Shown here piece by piece: positions 12,571-15,842 of a stretch of DNA of 64,000 bases (within the stretch, counting starts at the first letter, position 1; each line of letters begins with the position of its first letter). Below the pieces are notes generated by a model. That model was given only the letters and a program-made list of their open reading frames with translations, ran no database searches and was not told the DNA's origin. Source of the DNA: Bacteriovoracaceae bacterium (lineage in GTDB: Bacteria; Bdellovibrionota; Bacteriovoracia; Bacteriovoracales; Bacteriovoracaceae); assembly GCA_048270185.1 (NCBI GenBank), contig JBLWTJ010000002.1, positions 544,001-608,000 on the forward strand, given 5' to 3'. Position numbers and translations under genes: made by a program.

Positions 12571-12925
12571 TTAAATACAAGTTTAATTGATCGTACTTGT
12601 TTTTTACCGTTTTTACCATAGCGTGAACTTTATCTTCAATTGTTGCGGGCATGTCTTGGGTATGAGTTAGATACCATCGAAGTTCATCAACAGTATTATA
12701 ATAATCTTCTAAATTGATAATTAATTCATCTGAAAGCAACATCAGTTGCTCGATTGTAATTGTTTTAAAATTTGAATTAAAAACCGCATTGAAGTGATCA
12801 CGGGTTCTCTTCATCGATAGTATTTGTAGGTACTCTCTTTCGCGATTAATGATTCGATCAGCTAATCGTGATGAGTCCATTCTTAATATAATAAGTAAGC
12901 GACTAACTTCTTTTGAAACTCTCAC
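12521..12925 (-). CDS. hypothetical helical protein
   Basis: 134-aa ORF with GTG start and GGGGAG SD. Confidence 0.65.
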   Translation of the reverse strand: MRVSKEVSRLLIILRMDSSRLADRIINREREYLQILSMKRTRDHFNAVFNSNFKTITIEQLMLLSDELIINLEDYYNTVDELRWYLTHTQDMPATIEDKVHAMVKTVKNKYDQLNLYLNAELESHEEAENSDVA

Positions 12926-12948: not shown

Positions 12949-13401
12949 TTAGTACTCAGGAATTCTAGCTCGACGCCCACCTGGCCAACGAGAAGAGTTT
13001 GTCACTAATTTGCTAAAGATTTCTTGGCCAGCTAAGTCCGCCATTCGGAACATGCTGACAGGAAGTCTTTCTTGAAAAACCTTCTTTGTTTTTAAGATCG
13101 AATCGTCGTGTGAAACTTCAAATGAACTAAATTCGAAGAGTGTCACACTCCCCTGCCTAATCATATAATTTAAATAGCGACTGAGTAATTTATTATAATT
13201 AACAAATGAACGAATATCGCGAACACATGCAATAATGAATTGATGTTCACGCATACGAATTGACTTGAAGTCATCAAGTTTCATTGGAACAAGTTTCATC
13301 CCAAATTCATTAAAGACACGAGACATGTAGAGGAAGTCTTTCCCTAGGCTCTTTTCAAATTGTAAATAGATGACGTAATTCGATGTTCTCACATAGAACA
13401 T
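12949..13401 (-). CDS. hypothetical protein
   Basis: 150-aa ORF ending WPGGRRARIPEY; start uncertain. Confidence 0.6.
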   Translation of the reverse strand: MFYVRTSNYVIYLQFEKSLGKDFLYMSRVFNEFGMKLVPMKLDDFKSIRMREHQFIIACVRDIRSFVNYNKLLSRYLNYMIRQGSVTLFEFSSFEVSHDDSILKTKKVFQERLPVSMFRMADLAGQEIFSKLVTNSSRWPGGRRARIPEY

Positions 13402-13474: not shown

Positions 13475-13909
13475 AAAGGCCTTCACCTGACCTCCCATAC
13501 TGGTCGGTCGGCGTTTCTCGTCGTCATTTTGCCATCGTGGCAAATGCCGCCTTAAAAAGAAAGGCCGAGAGGACAACTTTAATACCACACACGTCACTCT
13601 CGGCCTCTTAAGCTTTGGATTAAATCATAGGGAGAGAGGGATGTATCTCCAAAGCTTTATAACTTCCATGTTTCTCTTGCGTCCATCCGTGGACACAGTT
13701 AAATCTTTTTTTAGAAAGGGGCCTAGAGGGGGATTAGTGCTAAAGCATCGTGCTTTCTACAATTCTGTGGCCCCATTCCTCTAGGCCCTTTTATCCTGCA
13801 AATAACCTTAAATTCCTAAGTGTTACTCACAGTAACCATCGCAACGTCCTATTGCTGATTTTCCAAAAACGTCCTATTTTTGGAGAGGCTCCCTGGCCCC
13901 TTGGTTACT
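13475..13909 (-). ncRNA. putative CsrB/RsmY-like multi-hairpin small RNA (~430 nt)
   Basis: About 12 stems; loops CAGGGA, UAGGACG (x2), ACGGAU, AUGGAA, AUGGGA; 5' AGUAACCA pairs with UGGUUACU; sigma-54 promoter placed directly upstream. Confidence 0.72.
13554..13606 (-). terminator. internal terminator-like stem within the ncRNA
   Basis: AGGCCGAGAG...CTCTCGGCCT (10 bp) followed by TTCTTTTT on minus strand; loop is large. Confidence 0.45.
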
Positions 13910-13917
13910 ATCTATAA

Positions 13918-13933
13918 AGCAGGATGCGTGCCA
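13918..13933 (-). promoter_or_regulatory. sigma-54 (-24/-12) promoter
   Basis: Minus strand TGGCACGCATCCTGCT with exact GG-N10-GC spacing; predicted TSS ~13907-13909. Confidence 0.8.
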
Positions 13934-13950
13934 AAATTGCTTAATAATAG

Positions 13951-13963: not shown

Positions 13964-14119
13964 CAAAAAATTGACAAAGAAATGTCCAAAACGCCCCACA
14001 GGCCGCGCCAAAGAATGTTAAGTGGTCCTACAAAAACAGCCACTTAGCGTAGGACCAAAAAGGAACTAATACTTGAGTAGTTTCCTTTCTGGCCCCATAG
14101 AAAAATTATTTGATGATAC

Positions 14120-14884
14120 TTAGAGAGATTTTCCGATTCGTGATGGCCTGAAGTGGAATGGTTTATCTGACCATGGGTAAACTAATGACATCCAAACCAT
14201 GAATGCCTTTCCACGAATATTCTTGATAGGAACAAAGCCCCAAACACGTGAATCACTTGAGTAGTCACGGTTATCACCCATTACAAAAACGTGATCAGCA
14301 GGAACAGTGACTTTATCTTGATTTAGGTGTCTAAAGAAAGTTGGATTCTCACCAATCGTAAATTCCTTATCCCCTAATTTTTGACGATAGAATTTTAAGT
14401 CTTCTGGATTAAGTGTTGGCTCCTTATCATAGAGAGAGCGAAGTTCTTTATCTTCCTCTGCACTTACTTCTTCTTTCTTCACTTCCTCACCATTGATGAA
14501 TAATTTATTTTCATAAACTTCTACGGTATCCCCAGGTACGGCAATAGTTCTCTTAACATAGAGAATTGCCGGATTGATTGGGTATTCGAAAACAACAATA
14601 TCACCTCTTTTAGGAGCTGATTGTGATCCAAAATAAATAGGATTAAAAAATTCAGTAAAAGGAACTTTTAGGCCATATGACATTTTATTAACGACAATAG
14701 AGTCACCAATAGCATTTGTCGGAAGAAGAGATCCTGTTGGAATATGGTAGTGATCGATGAAAGTTGATCTGAAACCAAAGACAATTAAAATGATTTTGAT
14801 CCAAGAAAGTGCTTCATCTTTGAACCACTGCCCAGATAGAAAAGCAGGCTTTGGAGCCTCTACTTTTGGTGCTTTATTAAACAT
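14120..14884 (-). CDS. lepB: signal peptidase I
   Basis: IPTGSLLPT (Ser), RGDIVVF, YVKR (Lys), MGDNRDYSSDSRVWGFVP. Confidence 0.93.
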   Translation of the reverse strand: MFNKAPKVEAPKPAFLSGQWFKDEALSWIKIILIVFGFRSTFIDHYHIPTGSLLPTNAIGDSIVVNKMSYGLKVPFTEFFNPIYFGSQSAPKRGDIVVFEYPINPAILYVKRTIAVPGDTVEVYENKLFINGEEVKKEEVSAEEDKELRSLYDKEPTLNPEDLKFYRQKLGDKEFTIGENPTFFRHLNQDKVTVPADHVFVMGDNRDYSSDSRVWGFVPIKNIRGKAFMVWMSLVYPWSDKPFHFRPSRIGKSL

Positions 14885-15425: not shown

Positions 15426-15450
15426 AAAGGCCCTTTTCAAGGGCCTTTTT
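15426..15450. terminator. bidirectional intrinsic terminator
   Basis: AAAGGCCCTT-TTC-AAGGGCCTTT flanked by A/T runs between convergent genes. Confidence 0.85.
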
Positions 15451-15842
15451 TATTTGAGTAATACTTCTATTTTCTTTTCTAAAACTTCTGTTGAAAAAGG
15501 TTTTAACAAGTAATTATTTGCGCCACATTCAATTATTCTTCTAATCATCGCTGTTTCTGATTCTGAACTCACCATTAAAACAGGAACACCAGCAACCCTT
15601 TCATCAGCTCTAAGTTGTCTAAGAAAGTCAAAACCATCTGCATTTGGCATATGCATATCACAAAGGATTACCTGAAACGGACTTCCCTTTTCATACTCTT
15701 CAACAACTTTATTAAAGGCAACAGCTCCATCTTCTGCCTCTAAAACTTCCGTCATTCCCATATCTTCTAAGATCGAACTTACCGAATTTCTAATATAATC
15801 AAGATCGTCGACAACCAATGCTTTAACTCCAGAATAATCCAT
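15450..15842 (-). CDS. single-domain response regulator (CheY-like)
   Basis: LVVDD, ILCDMHMPNADG, YLLKPF. Confidence 0.9.
   Translation of the reverse strand: MDYSGVKALVVDDLDYIRNSVSSILEDMGMTEVLEAEDGAVAFNKVVEEYEKGSPFQVILCDMHMPNADGFDFLRQLRADERVAGVPVLMVSSESETAMIRRIIECGANNYLLKPFSTEVLEKKIEVLLK

Follow-up and report, generated by a model that had tools for sequence, protein, structure and literature searches.

A conserved small RNA gene with CsrA-type GGA hairpin loops behind a sigma-54-type promoter in Halobacteriovorax: a candidate CsrA-titrating RNA

A conserved non-coding RNA of about 355 nucleotides

A conserved non-coding RNA of about 355 nucleotides (nt) is encoded on the minus strand of a 64,000-nt stretch of DNA, which we refer to as the window, from a marine predator of the Bacteriovoracaceae (Halobacteriovorax). 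Positions are numbered along the window, G000 stands for the window's own genome, and C1, C2 and so on are contigs of G000. A preliminary description of the interval 13475-13909 had proposed an unannotated RNA that titrates the RNA-binding regulator CsrA. The interval is composite: it contains the RNA, which runs from an inferred start at about 13907 to the end of a terminator U run at 13554, and an unrelated repeat in its last ~75 nt. The unit is a real, selected small RNA gene that is present in RNA libraries and whose family lies outside Rfam. Its loops, its promoter and the genes of its host incline us, by a small degree, towards a CsrA-titrating RNA that would be switched on by a dedicated sigma-54 activator.

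No open reading frame (ORF) of at least 60 amino acids was found between 13402 and 14119, which bears out an earlier statement about this gap. Folding was compared with shuffled controls. The interval 13475-13912 has a minimum free energy of -152.3 kcal/mol (z = -6.1) and the refined unit 13553-13907 one of -122.4 kcal/mol (z = -5.96), and in both cases none of 100 shuffles was as good. A junction of three hairpins with a short closing helix, part of the original proposal, has the same consensus fold in the six closest species.

The RNA family was found in all 13 genomes of the genus Halobacteriovorax, G000 included. When 61 related genomes were searched at the DNA level, five from the genus matched the region with 80-82% identity (query 1-403/412). 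With a covariance model built on the 3′ half (alignment A1, model R1), the RNA was detected in six of six sampled and five of five remaining genus genomes, and the twelfth was added by BLAST and cmsearch. G000 and five sister species form what we call the clade, whose six members have no small ORF in the RNA; the remaining seven genus members bear one. Outside the genus, R1 gave two weak matches. That in G129 looks like a real, shorter analogue, and a match in G019, which sits in coding-looking DNA, was rejected. A second model (R2, covering the promoter and the first two hairpins, H1 and H2) is unusable as a census because it picks up generic sigma-54 promoters, which it did in 128 of 151 genomes.

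Covariation confirmed the helices in both parts of the RNA. In the 5′ part, 92.5% of the alignment cells are paired and nine of 12 pairs changed on both sides; the covariation score was reached by none of 500 shuffles, and slid controls were 25-61% paired. In the 3′ part, 91.8% of the cells are paired, with two-sided changes at 19 of 28 pairs, including eight of nine in a hairpin with a CU-rich loop and seven of nine in the terminator, figures that are favoured by the fitting of this alignment to the covariance model. Compared with the five sister species, the RNA of G000 is 0.75-0.77 identical and the upstream control region 0.83-0.86. The corresponding values are 0.38-0.55 at four-fold degenerate sites of the two flanking genes and 0.48-0.55 in the spacer behind the terminator. 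Since the RNA is more alike than neutral sites, it is still under selection in this ORF-less clade.

Expression was assessed in RNA runs, six of which matched part of the stretch; four were examined, including X1, X2, X3 and X6. In X1, one contig of 354 nt aligns to 13540-13893 with a single mismatch, and X2, from the same study, has seven pieces on 13565-13898. Both leave the two flanking genes uncovered, uncovered parts of the runs being uninformative. Low cover was seen on 12671-12923. X3 gave no contig on the stretch and X6 a single contig from a relative with 90-95% likeness. The covered block in X1 and X2 matches the span from promoter to terminator, although the contigs do not carry true ends. 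The terminator occupies 13554..13607 on the minus strand and consists of GGCCGAGAG and CUCUCGGCC followed by a U run; it covaries across the 13 genomes as given above, and the RNA contigs end 0-14 nt beyond it. The 3′ boundary of the preliminary description was therefore wrong: the RNA ends at this terminator (13607-13554) and the repeat lies beyond it.

No Rfam family matched the minus strand, either at the gathering threshold over the whole window or at E values up to 10, where two chance-level matches on the plus strand upstream of the RNA were returned. A literature search found no description of the RNA; the InvenireSRNA supplements (PMC5568370), which lay outside its scope, might list predictions for the group.

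GGA hairpin loops and their conservation

Seven hairpins with GGA in the loop had been proposed, and all seven were found in the sequence where they had been placed. Three of them, all on the minus strand, keep their GGA in all 13 genomes. The first, H2 (13862..13884), has the seven-base loop UAGGACG. None of the 14 aligned sequences departs from its AGGA, and six of seven stem pairs changed on both sides; 12 genomes have the loop as UAGGA(C/U)G and the remaining one has it as CAGGAAG. The second, GUCC-ACGGAU-GGAC (13681..13694), has a six-base loop that reads A(C/U)GGA(U/A) across the 13 genomes and is closed by CC/GG. The pattern CCA.GGA.GG is invariant in the eight A1 sequences and kept in all 13 genomes, and one stem pair flips between UA and GC. 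The third, AAC-AUGGAA-GUU (13661..13672), follows 22 nt after the second and has the form ACANGGAWGU, in which ACA, GGA and GU are invariant and the loop is closed by AC/GU. Thus, GGA is invariant in three loops while their stems change.

In a selection experiment with Escherichia coli CsrA (SELEX), the consensus RUACARGGAUGU was obtained, with ACA and GGA invariant and mostly six-base loops with AC/GU pairing, as quoted in PMC7652899. Judged by their sequences, the three kept loops fit this architecture. In one relative, the third site reads AUACAAGGAUGU, which is the exact consensus as quoted there.

The remaining hairpins are less widely kept. H3 (13841..13855, minus strand; GCAA-UAGGACG-UUGC) is a second copy of the H2 loop, 25 nt after H2. 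It is identical in all six clade members; elsewhere in the genus, one or two GGA-loop hairpins that differ from it stand in its place. H1 (13885..13900, minus strand), with the loop CAGGGA, changed three of five helix pairs on both sides; its loop carries GGA in nine of the 13 genus members and in none of the four closest sister species. The long hairpin H4 (13796..13832, minus strand) is part of the clade consensus fold and has an apical GGA in G000 only. The expectation that the GGA loops are kept in relatives thus holds for three loops throughout the genus and fails for two of the seven, H1 and H4. The seventh hairpin (~13505-13490) belongs to the multi-copy repeat, which is inserted here only in this genome; because it lies within the insertion, it is not part of the RNA. 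The GGA sites of G000 are arranged as two pairs, with distances of 25 and 22 nt.

The number of such hairpins is unusual. The G000 RNA has seven strict GGA-loop hairpins compared with a mean of 0.68 in dinucleotide shuffles, none of 300 of which reached seven. Across 14 RNAs, three to eight strict hairpins were counted in each, with shuffle means of 0.4-1.1; for seven of the 14, the observed count was reached by none of 300 shuffles, and the weakest case was G007 (19 of 300). In a genome scan with a CsrA-type criterion the locus came first, with seven hairpins in 354 nt, as the sole top window outside long frames. The next two non-coding windows of this stricter scan are the rpsO-pnp leader and a small-ORF region and were discarded as not sponge-like.

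A sigma-54-type promoter and a putative activator site

The promoter was read as TTGGCACG-N4-CTGCT (13918..13934, minus strand), with GG at -24 and GC at -12, which we take to be the sigma-54 consensus. TTGGCA and TGC are invariant and their spacing (GG-N10-GC) is fixed in 14 of 14 aligned sequences. The promoter therefore reads better as sigma-54 type than as the sigma-70 type assumed earlier: the sigma-70-like match is weak (nine of 12 positions), and the -10 spacing that it calls for is lost in G005/G006 and G129. Dependence on sigma-54 is what this sequence pattern suggests. The genome contains rpoN and eleven matches to the AAA+ domain of sigma-54 activators, of which about eight are strong.

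An inverted repeat, TGGTCCTAC-N17-GTAGGACCA, lies at 14023..14057 (minus strand), about 116-150 bp upstream of the start. Going by its sequence and place, it is probably the binding site of a sigma-54 activator, that is, an upstream activating sequence. TAGGACC sites upstream of the promoter are kept in the genus members inspected. The inverted pair GGTCCTA/TAGGACC occurs nowhere else in the genome, in keeping with a dedicated enhancer-binding activator.

The GG-N10-GC pattern occurs at 27 sites in the genome, many of them immediately before a Shine-Dalgarno (SD) sequence and an ATG. The other 26 sites hold six GGA hairpins, compared with about 4.4 expected; a general link between sigma-54 promoters and GGA leaders in G000 was therefore rejected.

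CsrA, FliW and flagellin leaders in the host

G000 has one copy of csrA (91.3 bits), as the proposal of a CsrA sponge presupposes. The gene order is flgK-flgL-csrA-fliW, and both FliW and CsrA were confirmed by Pfam. Among the family's 151 genomes, csrA was detected in 143; for the 111 good-quality genomes the figure is 110. The preliminary description had noted that many other lineages use FliW instead of Csr-type RNAs. FliW is indeed present, and csrA adjoins fliW, so this is not simply a FliW-instead lineage. [quoted passage not shown]

CsrA of Bdellovibrio bacteriovorus is reported to repress a hag reporter (PMC13443453). In G000, five of the six flagellin leaders printed have GGA beside or in the SD, and three have a clear GGA-loop hairpin. 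No Hfq domain match was obtained in the genome, which is 95.9% complete, so CsrA may be the main global RNA-binding regulator. Nothing connects the RNA to the switch between attack and growth phase to which it had tentatively been tied.

A small ORF in relatives

In the rest of the genus, the central part of the RNA has a different content. In G000, a hairpin of ~80 nt with a weak U run (13714..13792, minus strand) is the remnant of a small-ORF segment. At this place, the seven genus members outside the clade have AAGGAG-N8-ATG followed by 50-68 open codons, and a long-range helix with a U run encloses the ORF. In these seven relatives, a GGA site overlaps the SD of the ORF; no such overlap exists in G000 and its clade. 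G000 has 17 codons left, and no frame is common to the clade. Conservation of the ORF products is poor; they have no match in Pfam and, in a set of 5.8 billion proteins, none but themselves. A hairpin within the frame is kept by compensatory changes while the amino acids change. That the open frame has persisted in four lineages speaks for translation of the small ORF, at present or in the past. A CsrA-controlled small-ORF mRNA was probably the ancestor of the family, and the clade of G000 lost the ORF and kept the RNA.

These observations raise the question whether the RNA of G000 is anything more than a decaying mRNA, left over from an ancestral sigma-54-driven small-protein gene with a CsrA-repressed leader and now devoid of a function in trans. 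The frames in the seven relatives speak for such an origin, and fragments of their ribosome-binding region are still legible in G000. Moreover, other genera show the order sigma-54 promoter, GGA-hairpin leader, ORF, in a set that was picked by a model containing such hairpins. On the other hand, the RNA is conserved well above the neutral level in precisely the clade that lost the ORF, and the 3′ module, which lies behind the ORF, is kept in all 13 genomes. The ORF products are themselves poorly conserved and without family, and the differences between the G005 and G006 frames, few in number, all change amino acids. We regard simple decay as improbable.

Candidate analogues were seen in two other genera as ORF-less units of 190-260 nt: L039 1482-1700 (G129), L062 (G128) and L068 (G091). 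In each, a sigma-54 promoter is followed by four A(N)GGA loops in succession, then by either a structured domain or a stretch rich in C and U, and finally by a terminator. The units of G128 and G091 are ~260 nt long and that of G129 is shorter; in G129, a stand-alone receiver-domain gene is transcribed divergently from it. In further cases from other genera, a sigma-54 promoter is followed by several GGA-loop leader hairpins and an ORF, which encodes a DksA/TraR-like protein in L061, L063, L069 and L059 and a secreted or small membrane protein in L057, L070, L060, L072 and L076. Because these leaders and analogues were found with models containing the same features, they show no general rule.

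An invariant CU-rich loop

Between the third kept GGA site and the terminator lies a hairpin (13610..13657, minus strand) with the CU-rich loop ACAUCCCUCUCUCCCU (13644-13629). The loop is the sole stretch that is invariant in all 13 genomes, and its stem is the one in which eight of nine pairs changed on both sides. The loop resembles an anti-SD sequence. It is conceivable, though in our estimate unlikely, that the RNA is mainly a base-pairing regulator with this loop as its anti-SD seed, the GGA hairpins serving to let CsrA control or assist it. The conservation of the loop on a covarying stem speaks for such a regulator. C/U-rich loop seeds that act independently of Hfq are known from Firmicutes, and one is plausible here because the genome gave no Hfq match. 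Additionally, CsrA is reported to promote pairing between a small RNA and an mRNA in Bacillus subtilis (PMC6546359).

The predicted targets do not favour this explanation. No other site in the genome complements at least 15 of the 17 loop bases. When the loop was scored against 3510 start regions, the top predicted duplexes shared no functional theme: the six best fall on unrelated genes, for MlaD, a PEP-utilising enzyme, a carboxyl transferase, a UmuC-like piece, ScpA and a trypsin-like protease. The start regions of flagellin genes come between 40th and 1056th place.

Neighbouring genes and the inserted repeat

Upstream on the same strand lies a signal peptidase gene (Peptidase_S26, 14120-14884). 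The downstream gene encodes a 150-aa protein and is the same in the clade and in G005/G006. Neither this protein nor the neighbouring 134-aa and 131-aa proteins matched Pfam or NCBIfam, so no functional link between the RNA and the downstream gene can be argued. A stand-alone CheY-like receiver protein of 130 aa is encoded at 15450-15842 (minus strand); its gene comes after groEL, two genes upstream of the RNA, and no link to the RNA is shown.

The constancy of the downstream gene bears on a further explanation, in which the GGA hairpins bind some other ligand and their likeness to CsrA sites is coincidental, or the RNA is a cis-acting leader or attenuator of the 150-aa gene. A cDNA contig of a related organism (X6) joins the 3′ module to the start of the downstream gene, and no known family matches the RNA. 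However, a covarying terminator closes the unit, and the spacer to the next gene evolves neutrally and tolerates an insertion of 75 nt. X1 and X2 have no cover on 12949-13401, and the loops fit the CsrA consensus closely. Taken together, we think it improbable that either form of this explanation applies.

The insertion is a multi-copy structured repeat of ~75 nt (13481..13553, minus strand; BLAST matches to 13567) that lies outside the RNA, directly after its terminator. The search of 61 related genomes gave many matches for this segment (query 394-480, window 13567-13481), of which seven lie in G000. It is missing in five of five sister species in an alignment of the six syntenic loci. The other copies in G000 are at C1:774660-774746, C3:335137-335213, C2:461549-461625 and 461681-461740 (in tandem), C4:54459-54536 (between two flagellin genes) and C4:164361-164439. 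Each copy begins right behind a terminator hairpin and U run. The repeat forms a long hairpin, in which one copy shows a compensatory change, and four copies share a mini-frame of 13 or 14 codons ending in NADRPVWEVR. It is present in related genomes as well and has no Rfam match. The repeat may be a terminator-targeting mobile element or a small RNA or peptide module.

One copy follows a second conserved sigma-54-driven small RNA of ~100 nt (C1:774851, minus strand). Its features are a GU-repeat 5′ end, a single hairpin whose loop is of the AAGGAU type, a tail rich in C and U, and a terminator, and it occurs in six other genomes of the family (L065, L067, L073, L074, L077, L079).

Comparison with known CsrA antagonists and sigma-54-dependent RNAs

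The RNA resembles RsmY/RsmZ/RsmX and CsrB/CsrC of Gammaproteobacteria in being a stand-alone gene with an intrinsic terminator and several short GGA-loop hairpins, with csrA in the genome and a site, here putative, for a dedicated transcriptional activator upstream. It differs in having three universally kept sites, an additional invariant CU-rich loop and FliW in the host. Csr/Rsm RNAs have a sigma-70 promoter under a GacA/UvrY-type regulator; no such promoter was found here, where a sigma-54-type promoter and an enhancer-type site take its place. BarA-UvrY is described as required for Csr small RNAs (PMC7652899).

Several points weigh against titration of CsrA by this RNA. The Rfam models CsrB, RsmY and PrrB_RsmZ all stayed below their cut-offs throughout the genome, and the best match to any of them (C8:2711, 24 bits) turned out to be a gene end and its terminator. 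The RNA falls outside every Csr/Rsm family of Rfam. No more than three GGA sites persist in all 13 genomes, which is fewer than the number in CsrB and at the low end for RsmY/RsmZ. H1 lacks GGA in four of the six clade members, and the GGA of the H4 loop (the 13820-13807 hairpin) is private to G000, five sister species reading UAUGAA. With a looser hairpin definition the locus only ties at rank 4-8 (eight matches, compared with ten at the top), and the CsrA-type criterion was chosen after that scan. The RNA contigs are strandless and come from one study, with no replication. FliW already serves as a CsrA antagonist. In seven of the 13 genomes, the RNA includes a frame open for 50-68 codons behind a strong SD, and the GGA sites may primarily be repressor sites that act in cis. 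A pure sponge model leaves the most conserved element, the CU-rich loop, without a role. Finally, CsrA binding and titration, like the targets, are what we infer from the sequence.

The claim of a CsrA sponge nevertheless keeps its core. The presence of csrA, GGA loops kept on covarying stems, the fit to the SELEX consensus and the discrete unit in RNA libraries all stand, whereas the promoter type and the 3′ boundary had to be revised and the ORF in relatives had to be taken into account. We judge CsrA sequestration under sigma-54 control to be a little better supported than its negation, which would mean that the RNA works like RsmY/RsmZ/CsrB without belonging to them.

CrcZ/CrcY of Pseudomonas offer another comparison. 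CrcZ titrates Hfq/Crc through A-rich motifs, whereas the candidate partner here is CsrA, via GGA loops, and G000 has no Hfq match. The likeness is that of a protein-titrating RNA of ~400 nt whose RpoN promoter requires CbrB as its dedicated activator (PMC5113210). For a protein sponge driven by sigma-54, the closest known example is CrcZ.

Small RNAs that depend on sigma-54 include Qrr and GlmY, and some RpoN-driven small RNAs act in flagellar hierarchies. CJnc230 of Campylobacter jejuni is a further example (PMC11187230). Unlike the candidate described here, these RNAs pair bases or use other decoy modes, and the accounts found in the literature describe none of them with CsrA sites.

The position of csrA beside fliW in a flagellar cluster is shared with the flaA/CsrA-FliW system of C. 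jejuni and the hag/CsrA-FliW system of B. subtilis. A transcript bound by CsrA can be both target and titrator (PMC4894983), and the RNA of the ORF-bearing relatives resembles such a dual-function transcript of the flaA/hag kind. However, the flaA and hag systems are described as lacking antagonising small RNAs, and the transcript here is not a flagellin mRNA and is ORF-less in the clade.

Proposed mechanism and implications

In the model that we favour, a dedicated activator at the unique TGGTCCTAC/GTAGGACCA repeat, together with the sigma-54 promoter, would transcribe the stand-alone gene of ~355 nt up to its intrinsic terminator. The RNA would present two pairs of CsrA-type sites, the two UAGGACG loops and the ACGGAU loop with ACAUGGAAGU, spaced by 22-25 nt, and one CsrA dimer could bridge each pair. 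When the activator fires, the RNA would accumulate and tie up CsrA, so that CsrA-repressed mRNAs, for example flagellin mRNAs with similar leader loops, would be relieved. The RNA decoy would act alongside the protein antagonist FliW.

A more far-reaching version is offered tentatively, and we hold it to be distinctly less probable than titration as such: a single CsrA partnered by FliW would in addition be controlled by an activator-driven, sigma-54-dependent RNA decoy that was once a small-ORF mRNA, and this decoy would have an anti-SD-like CU seed as its second arm in a bacterium without Hfq.

According to the 2020 review of Csr systems, joint action of FliW and small RNAs on CsrA in any species "remains to be determined" (PMC7652899). 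The same source reports that fliW is anti-correlated with the regulators driving Csr small RNAs (BarA-UvrY) and is absent from Gammaproteobacteria. The locus is a conserved candidate with RNA-library cover in a culturable predatory genus, and its sites are defined and can be mutated. If the proposal is true, this would be the first case of FliW and a small RNA acting on the same CsrA, and the RNA would be a two-armed regulator that combines a protein sponge with a base-pairing seed in a bacterium lacking Hfq. It would add sigma-54 with an enhancer-binding protein as a new input to CsrA control, and it would give a visible evolutionary path from a CsrA-regulated mRNA to a non-coding decoy.

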